Shown: positions 45,622 through 64,000, counted from the first letter of the stretch. The stretch: DNA of 64,000 bases from Candidatus Nanohalarchaeota archaeon (GCA_022729235.1 JALDAJ010000001.1:64001-128000), one strand, 5' to 3'. Numbers and translations: made by a program. The notes: a model not told the origin generated them from the sequence alone.

Positions 45622-45686
45622 CGATCTCAACTTAACCAGAAAATCATGAAGATTTTGAAACTATTCTTCCAAAGAAAGCTTATCAG

Positions 45687-46832: not shown

Positions 46833-46874
46833 ACTGCGAAGAGAATTTAACTTCGTCCTTCATAATCGACTTAC

Positions 46875-49800
46875 GTGAATAAAGAGATTTGGAGAGGAAA
46901 TAGAAAGTATAAGATTGCTGGTCTGGGCATATTTTTAGCCTATGTTCTGCTTCATATAGTCTTCCAGCGCCACGAACTACTCGCTTATGACGTTTACACT
47001 TACATCTCATTTGCCGACCACTATTCGGAAAACTGGTTCTATACAATAATTCCTGAACAGGCTCACGGTCTGGAGATTGTGAGTTATCCGCCTCTGTTCT
47101 TCCAGGTATCCGCGCTACTATCCTTTCTACCTTTCATCAATGAAACTCTACTTTCTATCCTAGTAGCTAGCGCTGGCGCTACAGCGTTCTCCTTCGCATT
47201 TTTCTACCTATTCAAAACAATTTCAGGGATAGAGACAGACCATGACCTACTTATCATTCTCTTCATCGCGTTCTCACCTGGTTTACTGAGATTTATCCTC
47301 GTGCACGGACAGCTTACCCTGATATTCGGGACCACCTTTGGACTTCTAAGCACAACCTACTTCTACAAAATAATAAATGGCGAGGATTACGGAGTCTACC
47401 TGATAATAACGCTTATCATTACCGCCTTTATCCACCATTTCAGCTTCCTTATAACAGCCCTCATGTTTGCAATTATCTCTTTAGTTCAATTCCGAAAAGT
47501 CGTTTCGAGAATAGATTATCTTGTTCCCGTGTTTTCAGTATCTGGACTCATCGTTCTCCTTGGTATGTTCCCGATGGTTTATGAGATGCTTTTCGGAGTC
47601 ATCCAGGACGAAATCTACCACGGCTCAAGATATCCTCTCGAACATCACCTTGCATTTAATTCGTACATTACTAGTCTCTACGGAGCAAGTATCCTCGGAA
47701 TAGTGTTCGTCTTCAGGGACAAGATAAACCACATAGAACGACCGAACTCACTTACAATCAACCTGTTGACACTGATATTCTTGATACTGGGTCTGGGGCT
47801 AACCACGCCTCTACCCGAAGTACTGTTCGGAGATACCGCAACTAAGCTTGTCTATGATCGTTTCTCTCTTCTAGCATCACTGTTCCTGACCTCTCTCGTA
47901 GGCGTTTACGCAGCAACCTATCAAGGCTCGCTTTCCCGAAAAATACCGCTCAAAACAGTCCTTCTCACAGTTTTTGTGGTTCTCTCGCTTGGAGCAGCTT
48001 TCTGGACAAACAGCCTTCATCATGGCTCATACGTAGGTTACGGACATGAAAATCTAGGCTCTTACAATCAAACTCAGGCGCAAACGGCTTTGGACTTTCT
48101 TAACGAGGAGGCTTCAGAAGACTATCTCTACATGACCCACGGTCACGGTCTTCCGATCGGCGAAATCGAAAGGAACACTGAAATACCTACTCTAGATACA
48201 GGTTATTTCACAGGCAGAAAGATAGAGTTCGCCAGCTCTTATGACAAATTAGATAGGACAACTAGGTCAGAACTGGAAAACATAATACATCACGCCTCCA
48301 ACGTATCACTTAAATACGTACTTACGTTCGATGACCAGTCAGCATCCTGGATGAACGACACCGGATGGGATGAAGAAGAACTGGGAAATGATGTGAAAGT
48401 ATGGACTAATCCAGATCCTGGTTCAGAATATGAGCGAGACCTCGGTGAAAGACGTATTCTATTCGGAATTATACCTCCGATATTCCTAGTGATATCATTC
48501 GCATTTGTCTTATCAGAACGCCTCAGATCAAGAGCAGAAAAGGGAATAAAAACATCTCAACAGTTCTTAAACAGTTTTCTGAACTTATCAAGAGACTCTC
48601 TTAGTGGCTACAGCGCTTACGGCATAATACTTTTGCTACCGTTTTTAGCTGCCGCTCCTGCATTTCTAACATCAGGACTTCCTGCAGGAGTAGACTCGCC
48701 CTTACCATTATTCCGGGCTGAGCTCATGACCTCTTTAATAGAAGAGTACGGTCAGATATACTACTGGACTGATTTATGGTACAATGGATCTCCTCTCTTG
48801 GCGGTTTACTCACCTCTAGGAACCTATCTCCTGTATTATACCAACGTTCTTTTCCAAGATATCACCCTGTCATACAACACCCTCCGTCTTTTAACGCTGG
48901 TTCTGACAGCATCAGCAGTTTACACCATTTCAAGGGAGATTTCTGAAGATAAGAGAGTAAGACTATTTTCCGTTGTCCTAGTCACATTTTCCTATCCGCT
49001 ATACAGCAACTTGTTCACTGTTGGACGTTTCAGCTCGGCCTTAGCAGTTCCAGTATATCTTTTCCTGATCACACTCCTAGTTAGAGACGATTTATTTCAG
49101 CAAAGTATTTCTTCTACACATGTCCTTCTCGGATTAGGATCCGGAATTCTGTTTCTAATGCATACCATGATGGCGTATCTCTTCCTGTTCACAGGCACTA
49201 TATTCTTTTTAGTATACAGAGACAACCTGAGAGAACTCGGACTGGCTCCAATAGCAGCAATACTTTTCATACCTCTGCTTTTGGGAGCACCATATTTGAC
49301 CCGTTTTATCCAGCATATGAACGTACTAGGACCTGCCTGGAACGTTGCGCCTCTGGACTTCAGCCTAGTATCACATATAGACCGTAATTTTGCCGTCCAG
49401 CCCCCTCCATTACACATGGGATGGATCCATGCAGTACTTCTAGCGGTCGGAGTCATGAGCTATAGGCGTATGAAAAACAAGTTTCTGCAATTTTCCTTAC
49501 TGAATCTCTTACTCTTCTATATACTGTTCTGGTCCCGGAACTACGGTCTCAAAATAATACCCTTCATGAACCAATTTGACCTAGCGCGATTCGAGATTCT
49601 CTTCGCAACCTTCGGGGTTTTTATAGCAGTATATGGTCTAGATCACCTTCTAGAAAATAAGCTTTTAGGAATAGACCATTCAAAAATAACCTTATTCTTG
49701 ATTATTCTATCAGGACTGGTGATTCTGGATACAAGTCCGATGCTTACCCAGTCAGCCAACTGGAGCCCTGAATTCGAAGAGGAACTCAGCGAGTTGCCTC

Positions 49801-50585
49801 TAGATGATAACTACCGAGGTATGGGTATAGGTATGCGACACTGGGATGCCTACCTCCTTTGGGATGCTGGAGTTCCGAATGTATTCGGATGGTTCCCTCA
49901 AGCTAACCCTAACGAGGAATTCACAGAATTACTGCAAAAAACAGGAGGAAGGTGGTACGCAACAGATCTTTCAGAAAGAGAAGATGATCCAGAACTCCGT
50001 AAAAATCTAATGCACATCTCTAATACAAGATACATTATCTCACCTAAAGGACAATGGCTACCTTCTCACTACGAAACACAAACTATAGGACTGGAATCTA
50101 CTATACACCCTAGTGATAGACAGCTCAGAAATGAAACATTCCTAGACGAAGAGTTCAAACGAATACACTCATCAGAACACCTTGACGTGTATGAGCTTGA
50201 GCGGGAAATGTCTTACTGCGAGAGGATAGAGCCTGTCTGGATAGAGAACAACTATGCGGATACGGCGAAGGATTTCTTCAGAGAGGGTCAGCCTCTTCCC
50301 AAATTCCCTGTCGAGGGTACTCCTGCAGAAAAACCTGAAGGAGGCGATATCGAAGTCAGGTGTGATAAGAAAGATCCTTACACTATCTCTCTAGATGTTG
50401 ATGGTTCAGGATGGGTTCTGGTGAAGGAGTCATACTATCCGTTCTGGGAGCGGGTTGACGGCGGCGAGATCCACAACGGATTCGGGTTCATGGTTGTTTA
50501 CGTGGAAGAAGGCACGGAGCTTAAATATCAGCCTCGAGATTTATCCACATTCTCAATTGACGACCTGATAACATTTATTTCGTGA
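46875..50585 (+). CDS. large multi-TM GT-C-like protein with two tandem membrane modules
   Basis: Two similar modules beginning (A/G)xD...W...G.....Y(P/S)PL; C-terminal LVKESYYPFW. Confidence 0.7.
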   Translation: MNKEIWRGNRKYKIAGLGIFLAYVLLHIVFQRHELLAYDVYTYISFADHYSENWFYTIIPEQAHGLEIVSYPPLFFQVSALLSFLPFINETLLSILVASAGATAFSFAFFYLFKTISGIETDHDLLIILFIAFSPGLLRFILVHGQLTLIFGTTFGLLSTTYFYKIINGEDYGVYLIITLIITAFIHHFSFLITALMFAIISLVQFRKVVSRIDYLVPVFSVSGLIVLLGMFPMVYEMLFGVIQDEIYHGSRYPLEHHLAFNSYITSLYGASILGIVFVFRDKINHIERPNSLTINLLTLIFLILGLGLTTPLPEVLFGDTATKLVYDRFSLLASLFLTSLVGVYAATYQGSLSRKIPLKTVLLTVFVVLSLGAAFWTNSLHHGSYVGYGHENLGSYNQTQAQTALDFLNEEASEDYLYMTHGHGLPIGEIERNTEIPTLDTGYFTGRKIEFASSYDKLDRTTRSELENIIHHASNVSLKYVLTFDDQSASWMNDTGWDEEELGNDVKVWTNPDPGSEYERDLGERRILFGIIPPIFLVISFAFVLSERLRSRAEKGIKTSQQFLNSFLNLSRDSLSGYSAYGIILLLPFLAAAPAFLTSGLPAGVDSPLPLFRAELMTSLIEEYGQIYYWTDLWYNGSPLLAVYSPLGTYLLYYTNVLFQDITLSYNTLRLLTLVLTASAVYTISREISEDKRVRLFSVVLVTFSYPLYSNLFTVGRFSSALAVPVYLFLITLLVRDDLFQQSISSTHVLLGLGSGILFLMHTMMAYLFLFTGTIFFLVYRDNLRELGLAPIAAILFIPLLLGAPYLTRFIQHMNVLGPAWNVAPLDFSLVSHIDRNFAVQPPPLHMGWIHAVLLAVGVMSYRRMKNKFLQFSLLNLLLFYILFWSRNYGLKIIPFMNQFDLARFEILFATFGVFIAVYGLDHLLENKLLGIDHSKITLFLIILSGLVILDTSPMLTQSANWSPEFEEELSELPLDDNYRGMGIGMRHWDAYLLWDAGVPNVFGWFPQANPNEEFTELLQKTGGRWYATDLSEREDDPELRKNLMHISNTRYIISPKGQWLPSHYETQTIGLESTIHPSDRQLRNETFLDEEFKRIHSSEHLDVYELEREMSYCERIEPVWIENNYADTAKDFFREGQPLPKFPVEGTPAEKPEGGDIEVRCDKKDPYTISLDVDGSGWVLVKESYYPFWERVDGGEIHNGFGFMVVYVEEGTELKYQPRDLSTFSIDDLITFIS

Positions 50586-53500
50586 AAGGACTCTTATGAG
50601 TCTCAAGGTCGAGAAACGTACGGTCATCGAATTCTAACGAGTTAATCATAAAGCTGAGGCACCGATTATCTTCGGATTCTGCCTCCTCCCTGACGGGCGC
50701 CTTGCATCCCTTTACACTCTCAAGTTCCAGAATGTTTACTCCTTCTTCCAAATGACTTCCGACACCGAAACTTCTGGTAAATCGCTCATCTGATTCAACT
50801 TTTTCCAGTATCTCCCCATTCAAAGACAGCTTCAGAACAGGATTATCAAGTTTGCTGTATGGTGTCGCCTGTAGAAACATTGAAGTATCCTCATTTCCAG
50901 ATAAGACCACTTTTGTCTCATTCGCCATCCATCTTCCGTCTTCCTCTTTTTCATACCAGCCCCCCAGGTACTTCTTCTCTTCTAAGCTTTCCACCAGTTC
51001 GTGTTCAACTTTGAAGCTCAGGCATCGTTCATCCGTCGAGTCTTCCTCATATTCTGCCGGAGTTATACATCCCTCCCTGCTCCTAAAGCGGACATAGTTG
51101 ATATCTCTGCCTGTCACAGGGACGAGGTGATGGTTATCTTCTCTTTCAGGAGTTATCGTCTCATGTTCTTCGCCGTTGACGTAGATTGTAAGCTCCGAGT
51201 CCTCGACGCCATGATAAGGTCTAGCCGTTACATTGAGGAGAGCTGAACGAGAACCGAGCATGACTTCTGATTCGTCTTCCATCCATCTGCCATCACTTTC
51301 TTTCCCGTGCCATCCCTTACCTAGAGTTTTCTCCGGCAGTTCATCCTTTGAGAATGTTGAGAAGCTTTCCAGAAGATAGCTGAGACAGCGCTCATCATCG
51401 GAGTCCTCTTTTTCTGCAGGTACGACACATCGATCAGCCTCAAGCTGTAACTCGTTCCATCCGCTATCCGGGACACTAGCATAAATCAAGGAGTCGGATG
51501 GCTCAAAGGTTTCCGCCCTTTCTCCGTTTAGGCTGACTTCAATATCGCTGTCTTCAAGATAGCCTGCTTCAGTCATGTTAAGCCGGACAAACTGGTCGCT
51601 ACCGTCCGAGTAGAACGCCAGTCCTGCCTCCTCCCGCATCCAGCCACCTTCTTCAGAAAGTGTACCCGAGTCATGCCATCCCTGAAGAAGAACAGGACCG
51701 TCTATCTCCTCTGGAGACCTCAGGGACATGTTTTCTATTCCGAAGGATAGACACCTTGTATCCGATGAGTTGCCGTGGAGCGCAGGTACCTGACAATCCC
51801 GGGATTCAAGCTTGATCTCATTTCTTCCCTCGCTCACAGATGGGAAGTAAAGCTCTTCGGAACCCCGGACCTCGTAAGTCCTTTGATTATTTCCGTTGAC
51901 AGCGACGTTCAATTCCAGTATTTCGTTCTGAGATACATCAAAGACCTCAATATGCGGTACCTCTCTCTCATCGGCGTAAAAGATAGTGGTCACGCTCCCG
52001 TTTACGCTGTCAAAGTACTCTCCGCTCGATCTGTATGTCTCCCCTGCAGCGTAAATGCTGGAAGTGCTTATCGAAGCAAGAATTAACAAGACTATTGCGC
52101 CTATACCTACAAACCGTAGTTTCTCAAGTTCCCTCCATAACAGACCTGTCAGGATAGCTACCGCCAGCATCACCGGCACGAGATTTGTCGAGAATAAAAG
52201 AGCTTCGTCACCTATAGCTCCCAGTTCAACGAACTCAGGTCCGTAAGGTGCTTCACGGGTGATGTCCATACCCTTGTAGCGACCAGTCAAGCTCATCATA
52301 ACTTCTGACTGAGGTCCGTACTCTTTGAACTCGCTCACAAGATGCGGGTAGAATTCGGGTTGAACAGCCGAAAAGCTGTGGAAGTTATCGCTATATTCAT
52401 CCTGATCCATGTCGATACTATGCCAGGCGTTAAATCCTAGCAGCATGCCGAATACAGAGAAAAGAAAAGTCAGTAGGACGAAAATCTGGATAGTACGTCC
52501 TTTCTCCATCATCTTTTCAAGCCCTAAAGCAACCGGCAGAATCAGGAAGGGAAGCCCGACTACGGTATAACGAGGTCCAAAGCTGACTCCTGCAAGCCAG
52601 TTCAGTTGAGATGCCTGGAAGAGCAGGAAAAGCAGGAATACTCCTGGGAACAGGATAAGAAGCTTTTTGTTCCTCTTGTAAAGCTCGTAGGTTCCCGGGA
52701 TTGCGAGCAGCAGGATGGGTGCGTAGAAGAACAACCCTCTAGTAGGGAAAAAGAGAAGACGAAATGCTGCATTTAAAGCCCTCACAGGGTCCGCAATAAA
52801 GAAAGCATTAATTCTTGAGTCAAGACTATAACACTCCACGTAAACTGCACACTCGGCTTCTAAAGGTCCTAGAAACATATCCGCAGCGAGTAACGGAGGT
52901 TTTAGAGGATTACCTGTAGTAAACCAGTTATAAAGGAGCAAAGGGATAGACCCTATTAGAACGCCTCCGATGAACCTCTTAACATCTTTCTTCTCTCCAG
53001 AGGCAAATAAGTATAAGATGAAAGGAACCAGAAGTAGACTGGCGTAGTACTCAGTAGCAAATGCTAAGGCAGATAATATACCTGAAACGTACATTAACAA
53101 TGAAGCCCCCGTGTTTATCGACCTCTGAAGCACAATATACGCTAAAAAACCGAAAAACGCTGCAGTTATGACTCCGAAAAAGCTTGTCGAATATACCATC
53201 AGAGGCGTTGAAATACCAGCTAAAACCGCAGTGTAAAGAGCTGCTCTCACATCAACATAATCTTGCAGATATCGATAGACAAGCACCAGAAGCAAGGCTC
53301 CCGGAAGAACGGAGAGAGCGAATACCATAAGAAACTGTCTGAATACCGTCTGGAAAGAAAGTTCTACAGGGGAATCAGAAGACTCGCTCTCCATCCACCT
53401 ATCTGCACCTTCATCGAAAAAGCCTCCTAGGATGTAAGCCGGTACAGCTAGAAAAGAAGACATAGGCGCTTTATCCGTATAAATCACTGAGGCATTCTCA

Positions 53501-53799
53501 AAGGATTGAAGCCTTAATCTCCTTACCATCTCTTCTCTCTTACCAGGAGGACCTTCCTCATAAATCTCCCAGTATTCAGATTCGTTGATTTCACCCCAAT
53601 GCACCTCAGGGCTTATCTTGTCCATCGTGTTATGCGAATACTCAGATATTTCAAGAGACCGATCTTCTACCATAGCTTGGGCAAGATTGTATCGAGACCA
53701 GGCGTTATCTCCGCCCCAACTGATGAACATCGTGAAGAGGAATAGGAACACGAGAAACAGCTTGATCTCGGTCCGGTCCATTTGAAACGGAATCTGCAT
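50575..53799 (-). CDS. GT-C-like membrane protein with four extracellular repeats
   Basis: N-terminal TM module (DKAP, RGLFFYAP, FGPRY); four repeats ending CxxP...D.RCLS. Confidence 0.7.
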   Translation of the reverse strand: MQIPFQMDRTEIKLFLVFLFLFTMFISWGGDNAWSRYNLAQAMVEDRSLEISEYSHNTMDKISPEVHWGEINESEYWEIYEEGPPGKREEMVRRLRLQSFENASVIYTDKAPMSSFLAVPAYILGGFFDEGADRWMESESSDSPVELSFQTVFRQFLMVFALSVLPGALLLVLVYRYLQDYVDVRAALYTAVLAGISTPLMVYSTSFFGVITAAFFGFLAYIVLQRSINTGASLLMYVSGILSALAFATEYYASLLLVPFILYLFASGEKKDVKRFIGGVLIGSIPLLLYNWFTTGNPLKPPLLAADMFLGPLEAECAVYVECYSLDSRINAFFIADPVRALNAAFRLLFFPTRGLFFYAPILLLAIPGTYELYKRNKKLLILFPGVFLLFLLFQASQLNWLAGVSFGPRYTVVGLPFLILPVALGLEKMMEKGRTIQIFVLLTFLFSVFGMLLGFNAWHSIDMDQDEYSDNFHSFSAVQPEFYPHLVSEFKEYGPQSEVMMSLTGRYKGMDITREAPYGPEFVELGAIGDEALLFSTNLVPVMLAVAILTGLLWRELEKLRFVGIGAIVLLILASISTSSIYAAGETYRSSGEYFDSVNGSVTTIFYADEREVPHIEVFDVSQNEILELNVAVNGNNQRTYEVRGSEELYFPSVSEGRNEIKLESRDCQVPALHGNSSDTRCLSFGIENMSLRSPEEIDGPVLLQGWHDSGTLSEEGGWMREEAGLAFYSDGSDQFVRLNMTEAGYLEDSDIEVSLNGERAETFEPSDSLIYASVPDSGWNELQLEADRCVVPAEKEDSDDERCLSYLLESFSTFSKDELPEKTLGKGWHGKESDGRWMEDESEVMLGSRSALLNVTARPYHGVEDSELTIYVNGEEHETITPEREDNHHLVPVTGRDINYVRFRSREGCITPAEYEEDSTDERCLSFKVEHELVESLEEKKYLGGWYEKEEDGRWMANETKVVLSGNEDTSMFLQATPYSKLDNPVLKLSLNGEILEKVESDERFTRSFGVGSHLEEGVNILELESVKGCKAPVREEAESEDNRCLSFMINSLEFDDRTFLDLETHKSPFTK

Positions 53800-53867
53800 A
53801 TGCTATCTCTGCTATCAGAAACTTTTATCAGTTCTCACAGGGTAAAAAAGAGCCGGTTTAGTACCGC

Positions 53868-55562
53868 TTATTTCTCTATAATAAAGTTCTCTAAAACCAA
53901 GATGTCCATACCTGTACCGTAGAAAGTTTTTATCGCCTCCTCCGGTCTATTAACTATAGGCTCTCCACGTATATTGAGCGAAGTATTGAGAGATGCCGGG
54001 ATGCCCGTTCTCTCTTTGAACCTCTTTATAACTCTATAAAGGCGGGGGTTAGTTTCCTCCGATACTGTCTGCGGTCTTACTGATCCATCGATATGCATTG
54101 CAGCAGGAATGTTCTCTTTTTTCTCAGATCTGACATCGAACGTTTGAACCATGTTAGGCGCTTCTGCAGCATCATACACATACTCCTCAAAATCTTCAAG
54201 AAGTATGACCGGAGCAAAAGGTCGAAATTCCTCGCGGAACTTAATTCTTCTATTAATCACATCCTTCATCCGTGCATCACGTGGATCTGCTAGAATCGAT
54301 CTGTTCCCAAGAGCACGCGGACCCATTTCCATCCTTCCACTAAAGTGCCCTACAATCTTCCTCTCTGAAAGCTCTTCGGCTATTATCTCCTCGACATTGT
54401 CGGCTCTAGTGTAATCTATCTTGTTTCTATTAAGCACGTCTTCTATATGCCCATCCGAATATTCTCTCCCTAGGTAAACACTTTCATAACCAGCCCTCCC
54501 TTGAAATTCCAGCATGCCTGCTCCTATCGAAGTTCCGGCATCGCTCGCAACGGGAAACGGATAAAAATCCTCTGTCTCGTCCATCCCTCTAAGTCTCTGA
54601 TTCATCTTACAATTAAGAGCTATACCTCCAGCGACTGCTAAATTTTCGTGTCCAAGTTCATCCAGGTACTTTCTAGCAATCGAGACAACAGTATCCTCAA
54701 GAAACTTCTGAACTTCAAAAGCCAAATCTTTGTGCCAATCTGTTATATCCTCTTCTCTTCTTCCTCTACCAAAAATCTCTTCCAGAATTTTGTATCTCTC
54801 TCCCAGACTTTGGTAAGTCAGCTTCTCAACATTATAATCTGATCCTCTCTTAAAATACTCATCTAATACGGATCTGATCTCTTTATTCGGACCTCCATAG
54901 GCTGCTAACCCCATCAACTTGCCTTCTCCATTTAATCTTCTGAAACCCAGGTACTCGGTAAAGACAGAGTAGAAATTTCCTAGACTATTTGGAAAACTAT
55001 AAGTTCTGACTCTCTCAAGCCCGTCTTCTGTTCCTTTCCAAACAACTGTAGAGTCATGTTCTCCCACCCAATCCATAGTCAAGACTATCGATGAATCAAA
55101 TTCAGATGAGTAAAAAGCGGTTGCAGCATGACACCGGTGGTGAGAGAACATCTTCACCTCCGGTACCTCACCAAACTTTTTCAACTCCTTAATTATTTCC
55201 CTATACGGCCAGTTTTTAGTGATCAGATATTTCTCTATAGCTCTTTCACACCTAAATATAAGCTGAGGTACACTGCAAGAACTCCTGAAAGCATTTTTCA
55301 GCTCAACTCCTGCCAAATGTCTAACTCGGGAAATATCGAAGGGAATTAAGATACGTTCTAACTCCTCAAACTCTATATCACAGAAATCCAGACACGCTTT
55401 GACAGAGTTCTCAGGAAACTGATCAAAAGCATGTTTATCACGCGTCAAACGCTCCTCCTCTACCCCGAAAACCAGTTCTCCATCCTGATAAATAACCGCG
55501 CTTAAGTCATTATAACCAGAATTATTTGTAGCAGGTACAACAGATAGAACGTACTGAGACAT
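53868..55562 (-). CDS. O-carbamoyltransferase (NodU/CmcH/TobZ family)
   Basis: EEERLTRDKH, HHRCHAA, EGKLMGLAAYG, GPRALGNRSILADPR, RPFAP and LNTSLN. Confidence 0.95.
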   Translation of the reverse strand: MSQYVLSVVPATNNSGYNDLSAVIYQDGELVFGVEEERLTRDKHAFDQFPENSVKACLDFCDIEFEELERILIPFDISRVRHLAGVELKNAFRSSCSVPQLIFRCERAIEKYLITKNWPYREIIKELKKFGEVPEVKMFSHHRCHAATAFYSSEFDSSIVLTMDWVGEHDSTVVWKGTEDGLERVRTYSFPNSLGNFYSVFTEYLGFRRLNGEGKLMGLAAYGGPNKEIRSVLDEYFKRGSDYNVEKLTYQSLGERYKILEEIFGRGRREEDITDWHKDLAFEVQKFLEDTVVSIARKYLDELGHENLAVAGGIALNCKMNQRLRGMDETEDFYPFPVASDAGTSIGAGMLEFQGRAGYESVYLGREYSDGHIEDVLNRNKIDYTRADNVEEIIAEELSERKIVGHFSGRMEMGPRALGNRSILADPRDARMKDVINRRIKFREEFRPFAPVILLEDFEEYVYDAAEAPNMVQTFDVRSEKKENIPAAMHIDGSVRPQTVSEETNPRLYRVIKRFKERTGIPASLNTSLNIRGEPIVNRPEEAIKTFYGTGMDILVLENFIIEK

Positions 55563-55626
55563 ATCCCGTATATACGCTCTAATCTATTTAATCTTTAATT
55601 CAAAGAGTTCAACAGAGTTCTAAATC

Positions 55627-56712
55627 ATGAAAAGGCAGCCTCAGAGGAAAATCAGAAGCACTCGTTACCCGATTTACAAGTCGCAACCTCTCTCAAGACA
55701 CAAACCTCTTTTCTTCGTAGAAGAAAAATCTTCCTCCTATATAGAGCTCCATGGACACAGCAGGTACGGTCTGAGGCGAGCCATAGAAATATTGGGGCTG
55801 GAGGAAGGTTCTGAAGTACTTTTACCCTCATATCTGTGCAGAGAGGCGGTAGAGGTATTTCAGGAGAAACATATTGACATAGAGTTTTATCAGGTAGAAA
55901 ACGATCTCGATCCTCGAATACCCGACCTAGTAGAGAAGATAAACGAGAAAACAGCCGCAATACTTGTGGTTAACCAGTTCGGGTTTCAACCAAATAACTT
56001 TGAACAAGTGGAAAAAATCGCCGATGAATATGATCTCTTTCTAATAGATGACTGTGCCCACTCTGCTTTGAGCACAAAGAAAGGTAAAATACTGGGTAGT
56101 TTCGGTGACATCGGTATTACAGGCCTTTACAAGTCTCTTCCTCTAACTGACGGATCTGTCCTCCATGTCGGTAAAGAAATTGACGTAGATTTGGAAGGGA
56201 TAGATACAAAATTCAAACCCCGAGATATTCTAAAAATAATGGGAGAGATCCTATCGAGAATAGAGCCGTACCATCCCGTCGCTGTACAGAAGATAAGGGA
56301 AGAATTCGGAGGAAACACAAGACGTCACAAGGGAGACCAAAAAATGTCTTCCATATCTTTTCTAAGAGCGACAACGCTGAATGTTGAAGATCTTAAAGCT
56401 GATAGGAGGGAAAAATTTCAAAAGTGGAAAGACATCTTCCCTCCCAAAAAGAAACTGGAGAAAGGAGTTTATCCTCTCTGCTATCCAACTTTTGTAGAAC
56501 AGCCTTCAAAGACAAAATCAATTCTGGAGAAAGAAGGTTTATACGGTGTTCAGACCTGGAACGATCTCCTTGCAGACGAGGTCACAGGCAATCCTGAGTT
56601 CAAGAATGCAAACAAGTATATCAAACATTTTATCGGATTGCCCGTCCACAGCGGAACACGGATCGAAACAGAGTATCTCAAAGAAGCCTTTTCCAGGGAT
56701 AGGATAACCTGA
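55627..56712 (+). CDS. DegT/DnrJ/EryC1/StrS PLP-dependent aminotransferase family
   Basis: EVLLPSYLC, LIDDCAHS, YKSLP (putative PLP lysine) and GLPVH. Confidence 0.8.
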   Translation: MKRQPQRKIRSTRYPIYKSQPLSRHKPLFFVEEKSSSYIELHGHSRYGLRRAIEILGLEEGSEVLLPSYLCREAVEVFQEKHIDIEFYQVENDLDPRIPDLVEKINEKTAAILVVNQFGFQPNNFEQVEKIADEYDLFLIDDCAHSALSTKKGKILGSFGDIGITGLYKSLPLTDGSVLHVGKEIDVDLEGIDTKFKPRDILKIMGEILSRIEPYHPVAVQKIREEFGGNTRRHKGDQKMSSISFLRATTLNVEDLKADRREKFQKWKDIFPPKKKLEKGVYPLCYPTFVEQPSKTKSILEKEGLYGVQTWNDLLADEVTGNPEFKNANKYIKHFIGLPVHSGTRIETEYLKEAFSRDRIT

Positions 56713-56768
56713 GCGACCGCAGTATAGACCCCCCCAATCTCTATAAAGAGATAAGAGAACACATATAC

Positions 56769-57491
56769 GTGAAACCAAAAAGTTTAGGCATAATAATCGC
56801 GCTAGGATTAATTACCGGATTTAGCTTCTCAGTACTTTACAGCCACAATCAGCTTCCTGATGATTTTAAGACGGATAACCATGAACTTGTTCTTGATGAT
56901 GCAGACTATTTTAACAGGTTTGAAAGAGAAATGGGCAGCGAGAATAAAACTGTTTATAGAGGGAGATTTAGCGGCGAGTTAAACGGTTGGCAGGGTTCTG
57001 GTTTTTACCTAAGTCATGGTTACTCTCAAGATGTTCCGCGTAATCATACCGCTGAAATATTCGAAAACGGAGAAAAAAGGACTACAGAAGGCTTTAATAC
57101 TAGTACCTATGACAGAGGATTAGTTTTCCTACTTGGATCTGATAGTGAACTAAAAAGGCAAGAGAAAATCCCTAATATAAACCTTGACTTGCAGATAGAA
57201 GCAGTCAACATGTATAGAGACGCCCTCCATCATGCAGGAGAAGTTGAGAACATATGCTTCGATCAGCCGATAGGCATCTTCAGAAACGGTAATCTCATCG
57301 CTGAGAAAAACATTACAAACACCAGAAACTACGAAAAAATCGTCGTTGAAGACTTTACCGACCCTTCAATCCTATCTCAGATAGTTAAACCGGAAAAATC
57401 TGCGGAGTTCAGTGTAGCAATGCTAGACGCTCCTTGGTGTGAAGAGAAAATAACGACCGTGGCTATCAAAGAGTTCTATATTAGCTCGTAA
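56769..57491 (+). CDS. membrane-anchored or secreted hypothetical protein
   Basis: N-terminal hydrophobic segment; no motif recognised. Confidence 0.55.
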   Translation: MKPKSLGIIIALGLITGFSFSVLYSHNQLPDDFKTDNHELVLDDADYFNRFEREMGSENKTVYRGRFSGELNGWQGSGFYLSHGYSQDVPRNHTAEIFENGEKRTTEGFNTSTYDRGLVFLLGSDSELKRQEKIPNINLDLQIEAVNMYRDALHHAGEVENICFDQPIGIFRNGNLIAEKNITNTRNYEKIVVEDFTDPSILSQIVKPEKSAEFSVAMLDAPWCEEKITTVAIKEFYISS

Positions 57492-57545
57492 ACCATATTG
57501 TATCTTTCAGGAACAGGCATAACTCTCAGAAAATAAAACATCCCG

Positions 57546-58262
57546 TCAAATTAACATCGCCGCAGTTTTCTTGTAAGTTTCTACCTCATGTTTCTGCAGA
57601 GGTTTTTCAAGACCATAGATGTCTCCCGCAACTACTTCTTTCTCCTCTCTTATTATCTCTATCAGGTCTTCAAGCTCATTCAAGTCAAGTACACCCTGAC
57701 CAAAACTTGTCTCCATAAGTGACTTGTCCAGTATATCAAGATCTATAGATACGTAGACTTTATCGGGGAAATCATCCAGTTTCTCCCGCAAAATCTCTCT
57801 CCAGTCTTCTTTCTCCATCACCTCATCAGATATACAGTCCAGACTGTGGTAGTATGCTCCTATCAATAAGATACTAGATACACTGTCAAGAGAACCTATA
57901 TCAGATACAAAGCTTGAGAACAGGAGGTTTTCCTCTCCTTTCTCCCGTAGATTAGCTGCGTCGTGATGGTTATCGATATGAATGTAACCTATATCCTCTT
58001 CTTCAACACCTTTGACAAGACCATAGGTGAGGTGGTGGTAGGTGTTCTCAGTGAGGAGTACCAGACTTCTATCAGGTAAATCAGCTTCCGCAACTAACTT
58101 TTCAACATCATCCTTCGATGCTTTTGCCTTATATTTGTGAAATAACTGGTTTACTATCAGAGAAGGTAACCCTGGTCTGACCAGGTTCCCGGGCATAGTC
58201 TCTCCCATATCCTTGGATAAGAAAAAGTCGATTTGAAACACGCATGGCTCAAGTTCTCGCAT
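57546..58262 (-). CDS. arginase/ureohydrolase family protein
   Basis: HHLTYG, HIDNHHD (DxHxD) and VSIDLD (DxD). Confidence 0.8.
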   Translation of the reverse strand: MRELEPCVFQIDFFLSKDMGETMPGNLVRPGLPSLIVNQLFHKYKAKASKDDVEKLVAEADLPDRSLVLLTENTYHHLTYGLVKGVEEEDIGYIHIDNHHDAANLREKGEENLLFSSFVSDIGSLDSVSSILLIGAYYHSLDCISDEVMEKEDWREILREKLDDFPDKVYVSIDLDILDKSLMETSFGQGVLDLNELEDLIEIIREEKEVVAGDIYGLEKPLQKHEVETYKKTAAMLI

Positions 58263-58280
58263 TTTTCATCCCTCTACAAA

Positions 58281-58991
58281 TCATCCTGGAGAATAATCTT
58301 TCAGATAACCTCTGTGCAGAGCGGTTGAGACCAGAACTCCTGATATATTATGCTTTTCCAGTTTTTCGACATCATTAACATTCCTGACTCCTCCACCGGT
58401 TATGAACTCCTCCTCTCCATACTCATCAGCTTTTTCCAGTAAGTGTTCAGCCACACCTGACGCCGTTCCAACGTTACCGATATCCAGCAGAATAATCTCT
58501 TCTACATCCAAATCCTCTACATACTCCAACAACTCAGAAGCCGAGTCAAAATGCCCTATATCACCAGCCAGCTCTCCGTTATACATGTCTACGCTGAACA
58601 CAGCTCTTGAACCGAGACATTCCATGATATTTTCCATGTCGCCTACCGACCTCACTGTTTCAGACGCCACTATCACCTTGTCAGTTCTCTCAACGACCCT
58701 GCTTTCAAGACCTTCAGCGGTTTTTATTCCCCTATCCAAGTAGAACTGTAGGTCGAAAGTATCGAACAACTCTATTATACAGTCATCGTTGTCCCCGTTG
58801 TCCTCTAGAGAATCGATATCTGCTATATACACCTTCTTGAGCTCAAAATCGTCTTTTAAAGCCTCAAGAACGTCCACCGGTTCCGCAGAGTCAGTCAGAC
58901 AGGATTCGACAGGTTTGTAGGAGTCCCTGTCCCCTTCCACCCCTCGGACAACCTTACCTTCCTTTATGTCAAGTACAGGTATCAGCTCCAC
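58281..58991 (-). CDS. HisA/HisF-related TIM-barrel protein (type found near C1-cofactor genes)
   Basis: IPVLDIKEGKVVRGVEGDRDSYKP, YIADID, VASET, LLDIGNVGT and GGGVRN. Confidence 0.82.
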   Translation of the reverse strand: MELIPVLDIKEGKVVRGVEGDRDSYKPVESCLTDSAEPVDVLEALKDDFELKKVYIADIDSLEDNGDNDDCIIELFDTFDLQFYLDRGIKTAEGLESRVVERTDKVIVASETVRSVGDMENIMECLGSRAVFSVDMYNGELAGDIGHFDSASELLEYVEDLDVEEIILLDIGNVGTASGVAEHLLEKADEYGEEEFITGGGVRNVNDVEKLEKHNISGVLVSTALHRGYLKDYSPG

Positions 58992-59044
58992 AAAAGAATG
59001 TTTGCACCTTCAAAGGTAAAAAGTATTGTAATACTGTTCAGTCT

Positions 59045-59689
59045 ATGGAGACCGTTGTCAAGGTGGGCGGTTCAACAATCCGCGACCGAGAACGTTGTCG
59101 AAAAGTAGTTAACGCGTTAGAGGACATAGAAAGCAATATCTCAGTAATCGCAGGCGGCGGCGAGGCAGCGGACGTTGTCAGGGAACTAGATGAACGTTTC
59201 TCTATTTCAGATGAAGCTGCTCACTGGGCAGCCATAAAGGCGATGGATGTCAATGCCCACGTGCTATCCGGTATGTCGCCTGTATTCCAGTACGCAGAGG
59301 ATGAAGATGAAATCAGAGAAACAATGAGTAAAGACCATATACCAGTAACAGGCGTATACCAGCTACTCAGAAAAGACGATTCGCTGGATAAATCATGGGA
59401 TGTCACGTCTGACAGCATCACCGCACACCTAGGTAAAAAATTCGGCGTAGAAAAGATAGTGCTGGTAAAATCCGTTTCAGGGATCAAAGATGACGAAGGA
59501 AAACTCCATCAAGAGATAACTGCGGAGGAAGCCAAGAAATCAGCAGGCGAGGTAATAGATCCAATTCTACCTGAGATACTCCAGCAACACCAGCTATCCT
59601 GCACACTCGTCCACGGTGAATACCCGGAAAGAGTAAAATCGGCTATAGAAGGAGAGAGAACAACTGCGACCCAGATCTTGTCTAAGTAA
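59045..59689 (+). CDS. mfnE: amino-acid-kinase-fold protein, MfnE-like (furanylmethyl phosphate kinase)
   Basis: VKVGGS, GGGEAADVVRELD, DEAAHWAAIKAMD and SWDVTSDSI. Confidence 0.78.
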   Translation: METVVKVGGSTIRDRERCRKVVNALEDIESNISVIAGGGEAADVVRELDERFSISDEAAHWAAIKAMDVNAHVLSGMSPVFQYAEDEDEIRETMSKDHIPVTGVYQLLRKDDSLDKSWDVTSDSITAHLGKKFGVEKIVLVKSVSGIKDDEGKLHQEITAEEAKKSAGEVIDPILPEILQQHQLSCTLVHGEYPERVKSAIEGERTTATQILSK

Positions 59690-59740
59690 TCAGGAGATCT
59701 CTACACCTCTATAAAAAGCCACAAATAGTAAGAGCATACT

Positions 59741-60574
59741 GTGAACCCTGTCAAGTTTTACAGGCTAGATACCTGGTACAAGAACATGGGGATGGCGCTG
59801 ATAGGAGTCTTCAGCGCCGGAGTTTCGCTGGACAACGCATTTGCAGCCGCGATAGGCTTTCTACAAGTATTTCTTGTTCAGCTGCACTCATTCAGCATGA
59901 ATGATTATTATGATCATCTAAGATGGGGTGAAGAGACCTACGTTGGAAAGCTTCTCTCTGAAGGATGGGATCTCTGGCAACTCCGGTTTCTTATGTTGGC
60001 GCCGCTTGCGTTAGCATTGATGTTTTATCCTGTTTCGCAAGAGTTCACCCTACTTCTTGTGCTTTACAGTCTTCTCTTCTACCTTTACCAGGGACCGATG
60101 CGTTTAAAACGGCATTGGGCGTTCTCCATACCCCTAAACGCGATCCCTCTCGGTCTTATAATCTACCTACATCCTTACCTAGTAACCGCAGGATCACTTG
60201 GAGCTACCGGATTATTCTTTTCTATACTTTTCACGTTCTATCTGGCGTTTTACGAGATAGCGCACCAGATCGAGCATCAGGAAGAGGAACGGGAAGTATT
60301 TTCGCTCATTGACCAAATAGGAGTCAAAAACAGTTTAATCGTCGCCACGCTTTTCCTAATAGTCCCTGTTGTAACAGGGATCTTCCTTGCTTGGTCAACC
60401 GGTGTTTGGCAACTGTATCTTATACCCGCATTCTTCTTTATAATTCGAGTTTTGCAGCTTCATAGAATAGAGGACTACGGGAGGATAAGAAAAAGTCGGC
60501 ACAAGTTCTACGCAGCACATGAAGGCATTTATTACTTAATTATACTCTCTCTAATTAGTGCAGGAATGCTATGA
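59741..60574 (+). CDS. UbiA-family membrane transferase
   Basis: About 8 TM segments, NDYYD motif and YQGPMRLKR; the second acidic motif is degenerate (HQIEHQEEE). Confidence 0.75.
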   Translation: MNPVKFYRLDTWYKNMGMALIGVFSAGVSLDNAFAAAIGFLQVFLVQLHSFSMNDYYDHLRWGEETYVGKLLSEGWDLWQLRFLMLAPLALALMFYPVSQEFTLLLVLYSLLFYLYQGPMRLKRHWAFSIPLNAIPLGLIIYLHPYLVTAGSLGATGLFFSILFTFYLAFYEIAHQIEHQEEEREVFSLIDQIGVKNSLIVATLFLIVPVVTGIFLAWSTGVWQLYLIPAFFFIIRVLQLHRIEDYGRIRKSRHKFYAAHEGIYYLIILSLISAGML

Positions 60575-61287
60575 AATCACTGATAACGGTAACAGATGCG
60601 GACGAGGCAGAGGTTGTTTCTGATCAAAGACCTGAGATAGTGGACATCAAGAATCCTTCCGAAGGATCTCTCGGTGCTTCAAGACCCAGTAGAATAGAAG
60701 AGATCTGCGATGAAATAGCTGGCGACTCCGAAATCAGCATAGCAATCGGGGACTGCCCTCAACTTCCCGGAACCATAGGTCTGGCTGTGGAAGGCGCTCT
60801 GCGCTTTGATCCTGATTACATCAAGATAGGTCTGAAAGAGGCTGAAACAATTGAAGAAGGTGTAGAAATCATAAGGACAGCGGTGAAGACAGTAGATAGA
60901 AATAATACGGACACCAGCGTGGTCGTGGCAGGATACGGGGATTATAAAGCCTCTGGAACCCTTGAACCGAAAAATATCGTCGAAGTAGGTTCGAGAGCGG
61001 GCGCAGACACAGTTATGCTTGATACGTTATCCAAAGATAAGGGAAATCTGTTGGACATATTACCACGGAGCGAACTGGAAGGATTCACTAGATACGCCAG
61101 ACAGAACGGTATGGATGTGGCGCTCGCCGGCTCCCTCACGACAGAAGACATTAAGAAGGTGGACAACATAGGAGCGGACATAGCAGGCTTCAGAGGCGCT
61201 GTGTGCGAACAAGGGAGAGAGTCAAGTATAAACAGCGAAAAAGTCGAGAACATAGTCAAGAACTGCAAACTGAGGGAAAAACAATGA
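60571..61287 (+). CDS. mfnB: (5-formylfuran-3-yl)methyl phosphate synthase (4-HFC-P synthase, DUF556)
   Basis: DIKNPSEGSLGA, DYIKIGL, MLDT..KD, ALAGSL and GFRGAVC. Confidence 0.9.
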   Translation: MKSLITVTDADEAEVVSDQRPEIVDIKNPSEGSLGASRPSRIEEICDEIAGDSEISIAIGDCPQLPGTIGLAVEGALRFDPDYIKIGLKEAETIEEGVEIIRTAVKTVDRNNTDTSVVVAGYGDYKASGTLEPKNIVEVGSRAGADTVMLDTLSKDKGNLLDILPRSELEGFTRYARQNGMDVALAGSLTTEDIKKVDNIGADIAGFRGAVCEQGRESSINSEKVENIVKNCKLREKQ

Positions 61288-62534
61288 TGCTCAGGAAAGG
61301 GTTCTATCTTCATAGTTCATTCAAACATCTCGAACAAAGTCTGCCTCATATAAAAAAAACTCAAGAGGAACGACTAAGAGAAATCCTAGAGGAGGCATAC
61401 AAAAGACCTTTCTACTCTGATAAATGGTCTAAACACGGTTTCCATCCAAACCAGTTCGACAAGCTAGAGGATATAAAGAAAATCCCTATCATCGATCCGG
61501 ACAGAAACCAGATGGGAGATGTCAAGAAAAGTATAGACAAGGGCGGAAGTCTGTTAAGCTCAGGGTCTTCGGGAAGGCAGAGACTTAAAGTCAATTTCGG
61601 GAACCAGCCCTGGGACTGGGTCGAGGCAGTGTACCTCAGAAACCTGATTATCCAAGGCTACCGACCGTTCAGGAAACAGCATAATTACTGGTATGAGAAA
61701 AGGAAGAATAAAATCAGAAGAAACATTTTCGTTCCGAAAGAAAATATCCTGTATGAACGATCTTTCGAAGAACAACTGGAAGAGCTTGAAAGCACCTCCC
61801 ATGACTACATAATATACTACCCTATTGTTCTCTTCACGCTAGCCAAGAAAGCCTTGCAATCAGACAGGAATTACGACATCAGTCCTAAAGCAATATTCAC
61901 GCAGGGGGAGGTACTCACTCCTACCATGAGAGAAACTATCCAGGAAGCCTTCAAAGCACCCGTCCACGATAACTATGGTTGTACGGAGTTTCACCGGATA
62001 GCCTGGGAATGCCCTGAAGGAGACGGATATCATCTCTGTTCCAACTCAGTGCTTATCGAGATACTGGATGAAAATGGGGAAGAGGTATCAGCCGGAGAAA
62101 GAGGACGGTTAGTAGGTACAACACTGGTAAACCACGTGACACCTCTGGTAAGGTATGACCTGGGAGACGTAGTGATGAAGATGGAGAATAAATGTGCCTG
62201 TGGAAAGAGCTTCCCGAAGATCAAAAAGGTAGAAGGAAGAGCCAGAAACTTCTTCGACGCCAAGAATTCTGTCGTATCGCCCTACGAAATTATCGACACC
62301 CTTGCCAAGTACAGGGATTTGCTTGTCTTCCAGCTCGTAAAGCAGGACGGAGAAGTTACCCTGAAGTACGTTCCTAATTCTAACTTCCAGCAAGAAACAC
62401 TGAAGGATGTTGAAGGCGATCTCAAGGAGGTATTAGGAATCAGGGAGATAGAGTTCCATGAAGTTGGAGAACTAGATATTACAGAGGGAGGAAAGATCGT
62501 GTCCGTGAAGAACAGAGGTAAGAACGTTGTATAG
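61284..62534 (+). CDS. phenylacetate-CoA ligase / CapK / F390-synthetase family adenylate-forming enzyme
   Basis: SSGSSG, YGCTE, PLVRYDLGD, VEGR and GGK; ATGA overlap with the mfnB stop. Confidence 0.85.
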   Translation: MMLRKGFYLHSSFKHLEQSLPHIKKTQEERLREILEEAYKRPFYSDKWSKHGFHPNQFDKLEDIKKIPIIDPDRNQMGDVKKSIDKGGSLLSSGSSGRQRLKVNFGNQPWDWVEAVYLRNLIIQGYRPFRKQHNYWYEKRKNKIRRNIFVPKENILYERSFEEQLEELESTSHDYIIYYPIVLFTLAKKALQSDRNYDISPKAIFTQGEVLTPTMRETIQEAFKAPVHDNYGCTEFHRIAWECPEGDGYHLCSNSVLIEILDENGEEVSAGERGRLVGTTLVNHVTPLVRYDLGDVVMKMENKCACGKSFPKIKKVEGRARNFFDAKNSVVSPYEIIDTLAKYRDLLVFQLVKQDGEVTLKYVPNSNFQQETLKDVEGDLKEVLGIREIEFHEVGELDITEGGKIVSVKNRGKNVV

Positions 62535-62586
62535 GACAGATTTGTTTATTCAAAAAATTCTAAACTTTGCGAAATATAGGATACTC

Positions 62587-62592
62587 TTATAA
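62587..62592 (+). promoter_or_regulatory. putative TATA box
   Basis: TTATAA centred about 27 nt upstream of the ATG at 62617, the spacing expected for a leaderless archaeal mRNA. Confidence 0.45.
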
Positions 62593-62616
62593 CTTAGGCA
62601 GGTAATAGACTCTCTT

Positions 62617-62709
62617 ATGAGATACACCCAAAGCAGAGTCGAGGTACTCTTGAACTACATCGCAAGACTCACTTCAGGAGGCAACTCCTTCACACGCACG
62701 AGAGACTGA
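62617..62709 (+). CDS. 30-aa small ORF, candidate precursor peptide
   Basis: Not in the ORF track. Manual translation MRYTQSRVEVLLNYIARLTSGGNSFTRTRD*; has its own TATA-like box. Confidence 0.45.
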   Translation: MRYTQSRVEVLLNYIARLTSGGNSFTRTRD

Positions 62710-62869
62710 TAATCTGAGAAACCGTTAGAAATATCTTCTGAATAAAGAATATCTCTATCGTCACATCTATAGTTTTTGACAGTTCGTGAAGATTCGCCTA
62801 ACAGATCTCGGCACTGACTCTCTCTTCTAAAAGAGTAAAAAATATGGTACTTAAGGAATAATTCAAGGT

Positions 62870-64000
62870 ATGGGTAGCCCAGACATCCTGCTGTTCTCTC
62901 CTCCCGTGAAAGAAGATTCGTTCATGCCTATGATAAACGCCGGTCTCGGCGCCATTTCAGGCTGGCTGGACGAAGAAGGATATGAACATGATCAGAAGAG
63001 CCTCCTAGCAGACTGCCGCTTTCTGAACAAAAACAAGTTCCAGAAAGATATAGTTGAATTATCAGTCCTGAACCAAGAGGACGTCCTAGACTATCTAAGA
63101 GGCGAGAATAATGAGGAAATAACGAAAGTAGCTAACCAGTTAGGAGATATGCTTGACATCGACTCCTACGATGTGATTCTCATATCAGCCAAAAGCGATG
63201 ACTCTCTTATCAAAGGACTACCTGTACTGAAGGAAAGAGCTCAGGAAAAATTAGTGGTTATAGGCGGATCATGTACCTCCACAAACGATTTAGAGATAGT
63301 AAGGCTGCCGTTCATTGACTACGGAGTTATAGGTGACGGAGAAATACCTATCTCTAATATACTCAAACACGAGCTGGACGGCGAACCCTTGGAAAACGAT
63401 ACAGGTCTGGTATACGTTGAGAACGGCGAACTAATCCGAGGGAAACCCTATAAACACCCTCTCGATATGAAACCTAAGCCAGTTTTCAACCAAGATATTG
63501 TAGAGAAGCTAAGAGACATATCCTTCTTTGATGAGCCCATACTCCCGTATCAATTCGGCAGAGGCTGCACCCAGAAATGTAGTTTCTGTAATTACATTGA
63601 GAACCAGAAATTCCAGTATAAAAGTATAGATAAGGCTATAGAAGAACTCAGAGATTACAGAGACAGAGAAGGGGTTAGAAACATTTTCTTCACAGACTCC
63701 AACTTATTCAACAAACCGGATTACGTCAAAAAGTTTGCGGAAAGAGTTATTGAAGAGGAGCTAGATATTCGCTGGGGAAGCCAGGCAATCATACTACCGC
63801 GTAGACAGGAGTTCTTTGACACACTCGCAGAGGGAGGATGTGTCTGCCTAATGCATGGTATCGAGTCCGCTTCAAACAGCGTACTTCACAGGATGAGGAA
63901 AGCAGAAACGCGATCAATGATAGAAAACACCCTTGAAAAAGAGGCGAAAGCCGGTATAAAACCTCACGGGTTTTTTATAACAGATTTCCCTCATGAAACT
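62870..64000 (+). CDS. B12-binding-domain radical SAM protein, 3' end beyond the window
   Basis: Not in the ORF track. Manual translation MGSPDILLFSPP...VVIGGS...VIGDGE...GRGCTQKCSFC (CxxxCxxC)...GIESAS. Confidence 0.9.
   Translation, partial: MGSPDILLFSPPVKEDSFMPMINAGLGAISGWLDEEGYEHDQKSLLADCRFLNKNKFQKDIVELSVLNQEDVLDYLRGENNEEITKVANQLGDMLDIDSYDVILISAKSDDSLIKGLPVLKERAQEKLVVIGGSCTSTNDLEIVRLPFIDYGVIGDGEIPISNILKHELDGEPLENDTGLVYVENGELIRGKPYKHPLDMKPKPVFNQDIVEKLRDISFFDEPILPYQFGRGCTQKCSFCNYIENQKFQYKSIDKAIEELRDYRDREGVRNIFFTDSNLFNKPDYVKKFAERVIEEELDIRWGSQAIILPRRQEFFDTLAEGGCVCLMHGIESASNSVLHRMRKAETRSMIENTLEKEAKAGIKPHGFFITDFPHET

Follow-up and report, generated by a model that had tools for sequence, protein, structure and literature searches.

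A conserved methanofuran-type gene module with a UbiA-family protein in non-methanogenic DPANN archaea suggests an undescribed furan product, probably for the cell envelope

The DNA analyzed here, a stretch of 64,000 nucleotides called the window below, belongs to a Candidatus Nanohalarchaeota archaeon (GCA_022729235.1, JALDAJ010000001.1:64001-128000) and carries near its end genes of the methanofuran type joined to a gene for a UbiA-family membrane protein. The open reading frame (ORF) listing and family scans place this module on the + strand at 59045-62534, in the order MfnE-like kinase, UbiA-family protein, MfnB and PaaK-like ligase; divergent from it, on the - strand, are genes for a HisA/HisF relative and for an arginase-fold protein. 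An initial annotation, made from the sequence alone, had named the four + strand families and two ATGA overlaps. The families were confirmed by Pfam and NCBIfam scans and the overlaps by direct reading of the sequence (ubiA/mfnB at 60571-60574, mfnB/ligase at 61284-61287). The divergent pair was also found where it had been placed, its ureohydrolase (arginase-fold) member being a weak match that no related locus shares. The genes on which the argument turns are the following:

59045..59689, + strand: MfnE-like kinase with an amino-acid-kinase fold (NF040622 MfnE, 131.7 bits)
59741..60574, + strand: divergent UbiA-family membrane transferase (PF01040, 47.8 bits)
60571..61287, + strand: MfnB, (5-formylfuran-3-yl)methyl phosphate (4-HFC-P) synthase (PF04476, 219 bits)
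61284..62534, + strand: PaaK/F390-synthetase-like adenylate-forming ligase, accessory (NCBIfam matches, all below cut-off)
58281..58991, - strand: HisA/HisF-related TIM barrel of the Orf17/MJ0703 family (TIGR00734, 160.5 bits)

The window lies on a single contig of 1,027,595 bp, in a genome with 95.15% completeness, 0.04% contamination and a GC content of 48.5%. The reduced DPANN halophile that had been supposed as host fits this 1.03 Mb genome, its acidic proteins (Asp + Glu = 18.8% of residues in long ORFs) and the label of the closest named UbiA homologs, Candidatus Nanohaloarchaea; the window DNA is also present in a soda lake metagenome run, the only listed run that contains it in full and possibly its source sample, and no RNA run was among those listed. 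A chimeric contig was considered and rejected as unlikely because the window sits on one contig of this length with so little contamination, and other genomes of the phylum carry the module too.

Linkage of the furan genes with ubiA is conserved well beyond this genome (G and L numbers are our labels for genomes and loci). Within the phylum, MfnB was found in 8/70 genomes and 5/32 genera and the UbiA clade in 9/70 genomes, so distributed that UbiA occurs in 8/8 genomes with MfnB and in 1/62 without it (G030, 89% complete, a 5.1 kb contig). By tblastn on the fetched loci, mfnE adjoins ubiA in seven of the eight MfnB genomes. In seven of the eight, mfnB too is adjacent or lies no more than 8 kb away, the mfnB of G012 being on a separate 5.6 kb contig. 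A metagenome scan with the UbiA alignment returned 14 loci (32-42% identity, GC 28-59%), in 13 of which mfnB, mfnE or hisAF_rel (the gene of the HisA/HisF relative) stands beside UbiA, mfnB in 11; the remaining locus is a contig of only 1.7 kb. A second DPANN phylum, the one with the Aenigmatarchaeota record, gave a UbiA-subfamily match in 5/371 genomes; one of the five, G130, has the complete core of four genes together with AsnB-like and ligase genes. Both mfnE and ubiA are present in 16 non-redundant loci; in 12 of these, mfnE is the gene immediately before ubiA, in the same orientation. The synteny that the initial annotation had suggested looking for is thus found in other genomes and contigs, and chance is excluded because the linkage is conserved in them.

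A tally of 18 non-redundant loci gave mfnB in all 18, ubiA in 17 plus L012 by tblastn, mfnE in 15 plus L012 by tblastn, hisAF_rel in 10, AsnB-like enzymes in 7, GT-C proteins in 6, PaaK-like ligases in 5, GT2 glycosyltransferases in 5, Wzx-type flippases in 4 and class-III aminotransferases in 4. L013, L032 and L040 (near-duplicates of L011, L033 and L041) and L031 and L034 (1.7 kb contigs) were omitted, and L010 and L027 were merged as G012, L014 and L028 as G017. The flanks of L037 are bacterial-type by reading of the sequence (glutamyl-tRNA synthetase, response regulator).

The furan gene set sits in an organism without methane-type one-carbon (C1) metabolism. MfnF (NF040623) has no match in the genome itself, in the phylum (0/70 genomes) or in G130; FTR has none in the genome itself nor in 5/5 other module-carrying genomes including G130, and MCH none in the genome itself. 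MfnA and FwdA gave there only generic matches, of 25.7 bits against a cut-off of 299.4 and of 20.7 bits against 392.75. The MfnF controls M. jannaschii and M. acetivorans were both matched, as were methanogen controls in each C1 search; the searches that found no MfnF or FTR covered genomes rather than full metagenome records. That the window shows no mfnF or formyltransferase gene, as the initial annotation had remarked, therefore extends to the whole genome.

MfnB matches PF04476 at 219 bits against a gathering score of 22.4, with residues 4-228 aligned on profile positions 2-227 of 228, and matches the MJ1099 structure 4rc1 at 137.5 bits. It falls below the NCBIfam equivalog cut-offs (NF002575, 217.5 against 304 bits; NF002573, 198.3 against 341 bits), and with the Pfam model module copies score 209-266 bits against 273-299 bits for Methanobacteria-class MfnBs. 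Its catalytic residues D25, K27, K85 and D151 are invariant in 34/34 aligned sequences. Two lysines and two aspartates are essential in MfnB, where Lys27 forms a Schiff base, according to a passage of PMC6604932. In the MfnB tree, the module copies are separate from the single methanogen class included, a comparison that cannot show them to be a clade among all MfnBs; tblastn matches shorter than 180 aa (including a truncated mfnB of L015), L033 (a duplicate of L032) and L031, L034 and L040, where no mfnB was seen, were left out of it. The truncated gene belongs to a tandem of mfnB copies at L015:4602-5795 (G036), whose first copy is only 163 aa long.

The MfnE-like kinase aligns with NF040622 over positions 3-210 of 211 at 131.7 bits, missing the equivalog cut-off of 300, and scores far lower on the UMP kinase (36.7 bits) and IPK (26.1 bits) models; it matches PF00696 at 64.5 bits, and the nearest solved chain is 7qrh (78.7 bits). 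It is predicted to convert a furanylmethyl phosphate into the diphosphate, and the roles of MfnB, MfnE and MfnF together with furan activation as the diphosphate F1-PP are summarized in part of PMC8141765.

The HisA/HisF relative, which had been set apart from the furan genes as a bystander, belongs with them. It matches PF00977 at 124.7 bits, and its best NCBIfam model is TIGR00734 hisAF_rel (160.5 bits over positions 1-220 of 221, missing the cut-off of 179.85), well above the 93 bits of the HisA model. Full-length hisAF_rel (136-158 bits) was found in only 4/70 phylum genomes (G000, G012, G043 and G044) and adjoins the module in all four; the remaining matches in the phylum are 25-35-bit fragments of another barrel. 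Hemmann et al. (2021; PMC8141765) report that methylofuran synthesis cannot proceed without Orf17, a PF00977 protein and homolog of MJ_0703, that the pterin cofactor is made without need for it, and that its mutant accumulates no detectable intermediate, so that Orf17 may act early; they give its function and the bacterial MfnC transaminase as still unidentified. The relative is counted in the furan set because its family is needed for methylofuran synthesis.

In the module genomes that lack hisAF_rel (G015, G016, G017 and G036, 72-78% complete), the gene directly upstream of mfnE encodes a class-III aminotransferase (L015:158-1366, L016:3853-5043, L028:10677-11864 and L012:6752-7693; PF00202 at 271 bits in L016). 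Four genomes carry each kind, and the two were found together in no phylum genome or fetched locus. The same gene position and the mutual replacement suggest a shared step, from the 4-HFC-P aldehyde to the F1-P amine, which would make both proteins candidates for the MfnC reaction, perhaps through two replacement events. A DegT/DnrJ/EryC1-type aminotransferase in the window is a possible stand-in for this amination; its PF01041 match is limited to residues 49-174, and tblastn did not find it in related loci.

The UbiA-family protein, sole member of its family in the genome by Pfam-model search, matches PF01040 at 47.8 bits against a gathering score of 34.2, over residues 18-253. Its first Asp-rich motif is kept as N54DxxD58, with N54 and D58 invariant in a 41-sequence alignment and D or N at position 55 among the sequences listed, and the second is replaced by E172xxH175Q176xxH179, in which E172 and H175 show little or no variation across that alignment. 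By profile alignment this HQxxHxxxD/E stretch lies over the DxxDxxxD of AfUbiA (4tq3) and of digeranylgeranylglyceryl phosphate (DGGGP) synthase (6m31), which are the best solved relatives of the family profile (52.6 and 50.8 bits). Metal or substrate binding may differ from that of known UbiA enzymes. The subfamily is rare, with 72 cluster representatives at E<=0.001 and 46 at E<=1e-10 among 1.84 billion. In a tree of 27 UbiA sequences, which omitted L013, L032, L040, L031, L042, L043 and L022-L024, the 17 furan-linked sequences and the furan-less L026 (G030) form one clade with 99/99 support, and the nearest row outside it is L017, a furan-less Aenigmatarchaeota sequence. A housekeeping DGGGP synthase was tried as an identity and rejected because the clade is present in only 9/70 phylum genomes. 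Fused UbiA forms (512-2000 aa) were not found, which is weak evidence.

A second alignment reached more distant UbiA relatives in Aenigmatarchaeota, Omnitrophota, Methanobacteriota and Hadarchaeales records. None of their eight loci has mfn genes within 8 kb; B12-radical-SAM neighbors stand in 6/8 and carbamoyltransferases in 2/8, and MfnB was found in 1/5 of their genomes, elsewhere in that genome. G017 holds a second, distant UbiA paralog (25% identity) followed by a GT-C protein (PMT_2, 67.2 bits) at L028:5121-10499. The paralog is preceded by polyprenyl synthase-like and IPK-like kinase genes, named by reading the sequences, and by GT2-like genes, and the block lies just upstream of the class-III aminotransferase and mfnE. 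A tblastn search of the genome studied here with the polyprenyl synthase-like and IPK-like genes of G017 gave no match.

The surroundings of the module consist of envelope and accessory genes:

46875..50585, + strand: membrane protein, 1236 aa (tblastn homologs in L015 and L010)
50575..53799, - strand: GT-C-type (PMT_2-like) membrane protein, 1074 aa (PF13231, 26.2 bits)
53868..55562, - strand: NodU/CmcH-type carbamoyltransferase, accessory (PF16861, 228.2 bits; PF02543, 177.6 bits)
55627..56712, + strand: DegT/DnrJ/EryC1-type aminotransferase, accessory (PF01041, 60.6 bits)
57546..58262, - strand: short arginase-fold protein, 238 aa, locus-specific accessory (PF00491, 40.2 bits)
58992..59044, no strand: divergent intergenic region of 53 bp between the HisA/HisF relative and mfnE (read directly)
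62870..64000, + strand: B12-binding radical SAM protein, 505 aa, accessory, extending beyond the window (PF04055)

The upstream part of the window thus runs through a GT4 glycosyltransferase, the 1236-aa membrane protein, the GT-C protein, the carbamoyltransferase and the DegT-type aminotransferase, and a Wzx-type flippase (Polysacc_synt, 112.5 bits) follows 2.8 kb past the window end. The 1074-aa protein barely exceeds the PF13231 (PMT_2) cut-off of 26.1 and its homologs score 29.3, 48 and up to 67.2 bits; since the family profile finds nothing among PDB sequences at E<=1, the GT-C assignment rests on these Pfam matches. The protein is a candidate user of a lipid-linked donor; its homologs adjoin the module in L011, L013, L015, L016, L027 and L039, and in L017 and L053 they adjoin UbiA relatives that have no furan genes. 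One homolog beside the module, at G043:C5:10521-12614, has two in-frame TAA stops that the near-identical G044 copy does not have, and may be a pseudogene or carry a sequence error. The N-terminal ~560 aa of the 1236-aa protein, which has no Pfam match, correspond to proteins of 548-571 aa beside the module in L015 (34% over 568 aa by tblastn) and L010 (27% over 568 aa); the L015 homolog has a weak DUF2142 match (E 0.0054). The glycan and furan region at 44000-64000 has a GC content of 0.41-0.47 against 0.485 genome-wide, and the same-genus genome G032 (96% complete) gave no match to MfnB, the UbiA clade or the GT-C family; because of these two features the region behaves as a variable island. 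In the 53-bp intergenic region, a 6-bp inverted repeat (AGTATT-GT-AATACT) is a possible regulator site.

Among the accessory genes, the ligase begins at ATG 61284, the place that matches the start of its homologs, and a start at GTG 61203 was rejected. Its NCBIfam matches (DVU1553_fam_AMP 119.3 bits, paak_haloarch 103.8 bits) are all below cut-off, and it matches the PDB phenylacetate-CoA ligase 4r1l at 91.8 bits. An adenylate-forming or AsnB-like enzyme is found in 11/18 loci, and the presence of AsnB-like (7/18) or PaaK-like (5/18) enzymes with the module suggests an ATP-dependent amide-forming step. The AsnB-like amidotransferases include L011:4062-5816, L014:10014-11777, L030:14123-15874, L039:6120-7952 and two copies in L051, the only locus with both kinds. 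The arginase-fold gene, 18 bp downstream of the HisA/HisF relative, matches PF00491 over residues 76-229 (cut-off 22) and the PDB formimidoylglutamase 3m1r at only 20 bits; it was rejected as a core part, with no tblastn match in any related locus. The radical SAM protein scores 70.4-81.1 bits on PF04055 and 19.5 bits, below cut-off, on the B12-binding model, and its homologs adjoin UbiA relatives in L017-L022, L032/L033 and L041; homologs of the carbamoyltransferase are near UbiA relatives in L018, L019 and L038. The radical SAM protein at L033:12913-14088 has the zinc ribbon of the MJ0619-type methanopterin pterin methylase (PF23545, 68.6 bits), and similar N-termini occur in L018, L019 and L020, a second methanogen-cofactor-type family near UbiA relatives. 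G043, G044 and G017 encode, next to mfnB or a short way from it, a protein with the dual-specificity phosphatase fold (L011:5858-6358, where PF00782 scores 61.1 bits; L013:5302-5832; L014:9370-9972).

Taken as a conserved furan module of non-methanogens, these genes point to an undescribed furan product, probably for the cell envelope. The reading that we favor, tentatively and with somewhat less than an even chance of being right, is that the module makes furanylmethyl diphosphate and that the UbiA-family protein, standing in for MfnF, moves the furanylmethyl group to an acceptor, probably a polyprenyl phosphate that GT-C enzymes use. MfnB would condense two triose phosphates to 4-HFC-P, as its family membership and intact catalytic residues indicate, the Orf17-type relative would work within the furan branch and possibly convert the aldehyde to the amine, and the MfnE-like kinase would, judging by its family, yield furanylmethyl diphosphate. 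Within the conserved core, only the UbiA family has a known activity on diphosphate esters. The UbiA-like enzyme would ionize the furanylmethyl diphosphate and transfer its furanylmethyl group, a replacement of MfnF that we infer because of gene order, co-occurrence and the missing MfnF; the initial annotation's proposal of such a transfer is in this way partly supported, most of the computational checks that it named having been run with outcomes in its favor. The likeliest acceptor would be polyprenyl phosphate or another membrane lipid, narrowed to these envelope lipids because furan-less UbiA relatives stand beside GT-C and B12-radical-SAM genes and the locus itself is a glycan and envelope one. 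In the most speculative steps, this choice of acceptor among them, the lipid-linked furan would be placed on the envelope through the Wzx-type flippase and the neighboring GT-C enzymes, by parallel with systems made of a UbiA-type phosphoribosyltransferase, a flippase and a GT-C enzyme. The ligase or AsnB-like enzyme, the carbamoyltransferase, the radical SAM protein and the arginase-fold protein may tailor the product, lineage by lineage. A fuller version, in which a polyprenyl-phospho-furanylmethyl donor serves GT-C enzymes that put aminomethyl- or formyl-furan on surface glycans, lipids or proteins, and the HisA/HisF relative carries out a pyridoxal phosphate-independent amination of 4-HFC-P to F1-P, is unlikely to hold as a whole.

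Several points weigh against furanylmethyl transfer by UbiA. The substrates of MfnB, the MfnE-like kinase and hisAF_rel may differ from the methanogen ones because all three score below equivalog cut-offs. The UbiA-family protein misses the second Asp-rich motif, its nearest solved relatives (chlorophyll synthase and 4od4 besides the two named above) use prenyl diphosphates, and the structure of the mycobacterial phosphoribosyltransferase gives no match to the family profile at E<=10. HQxxH is kept in most furan-less relatives, so that the motif marks the subfamily and not the furan link, and the shared chemistry of the subfamily may be non-furan. The GT-C link to the module is frequent, not obligatory: the family occurs in 11/70 phylum genomes, six that carry the module and five that lack it, and two module genomes of 72-73% completeness gave no match to it. 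The counts overstate independence because many of the loci come from related genomes and they were picked for their similarity to MfnB or UbiA. Finally, the genome encodes a polyprenyl diphosphate synthase (Pfam model, 99.2 bits), so that a prenyl donor is available and a prenylated furan stays a live rival; an earlier argument from a lack of isoprenoid synthesis was dropped once that model had found the synthase.

In this rival the furan is the acceptor, and UbiA would prenylate its ring or side chain from polyprenyl diphosphate to give a membrane-anchored prenyl-furan. UbiA and MenA prenylate aromatic acids, and the prenyl diphosphate-using structural relatives, the encoded synthase and the G017 paralog beside polyprenyl synthase-like and IPK-like genes all agree with such a reaction. 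On the other hand, it leaves no consumer for the diphosphate made by the kinase, whose gene precedes ubiA in 12/16 loci, with no MfnF in the genome itself, the 70 phylum genomes or G130 to use it, and the diphosphate-binding second Asp motif of the prenyl-using UbiAs is gone; it is accordingly held as doubtful. Improbable, and placed after it, is an account in which UbiA and the GT-C protein are a general envelope-modification pair and the furan is made separately, to be attached by the PaaK-like or AsnB-like enzyme or to stay soluble. UbiA relatives with the same motif do stand beside GT-C and B12-radical-SAM genes with no mfn gene nearby (L017, L018, L019 and L053), and the adenylate-forming or AsnB-like enzymes of 11/18 loci could serve such an attachment. 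This account is opposed by the grouping of 17/17 furan-linked UbiAs in one clade, by the position of ubiA between mfnE and mfnB with translational overlap, by the presence of UbiA in 8/8 MfnB genomes against 1/62 others and by a conserved core that holds no other candidate transferase. A methanofuran-like soluble C1 cofactor, or a decaying remnant of its pathway with UbiA incidental, is very improbable: three core genes do come from methanofuran or methylofuran synthesis families and 'methanofuran biosynthesis' is annotated in some DPANN genomes (in part of PMC10936187), but a 95%-complete genome yielded no match to MfnF, FTR or MCH and none above cut-off to MfnA or FwdA, MfnF is in 0/70 phylum genomes, and decay does not fit because the genes are intact, the catalytic residues conserved and the order kept across GC 28-59%.

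In methanogens and methylotrophs, furan chemistry of the methanofuran type has been linked with C1 metabolism. Conservation of the module in organisms that lack this metabolism implies an undescribed furan metabolite, probably in the envelope of host-attached DPANN cells; where pathway-level annotation reports 'methanofuran biosynthesis' in a DPANN genome, it may have picked up this furan-UbiA module instead. The literature searched, which took in papers without their supplementary files, yielded none linking MfnB or MfnE with UbiA or describing the module in DPANN archaea. The module would combine methanofuran-type furan activation with UbiA-type transfer, and on the bolder reading its product would be a new, non-sugar kind of lipid-linked donor. 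If furanylmethyl transfer by UbiA is true, UbiA-family chemistry would be extended to a furanylmethyl diphosphate donor and furan groups placed on the cell surface from a lipid-linked donor would be a new kind of modification in host-attached DPANN cells; an amination by the HisA/HisF relative would settle the role of Orf17/MJ0703 in methanofuran and methylofuran synthesis, for whose study the module offers a compact four-gene system.

Three known systems invite comparison. The methanofuran and methylofuran core resembles the module in its linked MfnB, MfnE-like kinase and Orf17-type HisA/HisF relative, with the MfnB catalytic residues kept, and in the activation of the furan as a diphosphate, as with F1-PP in part of PMC8141765. 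Unlike that core, the module has no MfnF or FTR found, no MfnA or FwdA above cut-off and three shared genes below equivalog level; it has a UbiA-family membrane protein in place of a soluble coupling enzyme, and an envelope glycan gene context instead of C1 metabolism. AfUbiA (4tq3) and DGGGP synthase (6m31) match the UbiA-family protein over most of its length with NDxxD aligned, and differ in having DxxDxxxD where HQxxHxxxD/E stands here. In the third system, a UbiA-type enzyme moves phosphoribose from phosphoribosyl pyrophosphate (PRPP) to polyprenyl phosphate (as given in parts of PMC11127046 and PMC10994848), and with a flippase and a GT-C enzyme it adds pentofuranoses outside the cytoplasm (in part of PMC11127046). 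DPPRS (Rv3806c) and PPPRS use PRPP as donor where furanylmethyl diphosphate is proposed here, the solved DPPRS structure is not matched by the family profile (E<=10), the second Asp-rich motif is replaced in the present protein, and no phosphoribose phosphatase or epimerase gene was seen here. What the two share is a locus that brings together a UbiA-family enzyme, a Wzx-type flippase and GT-C-fold proteins.

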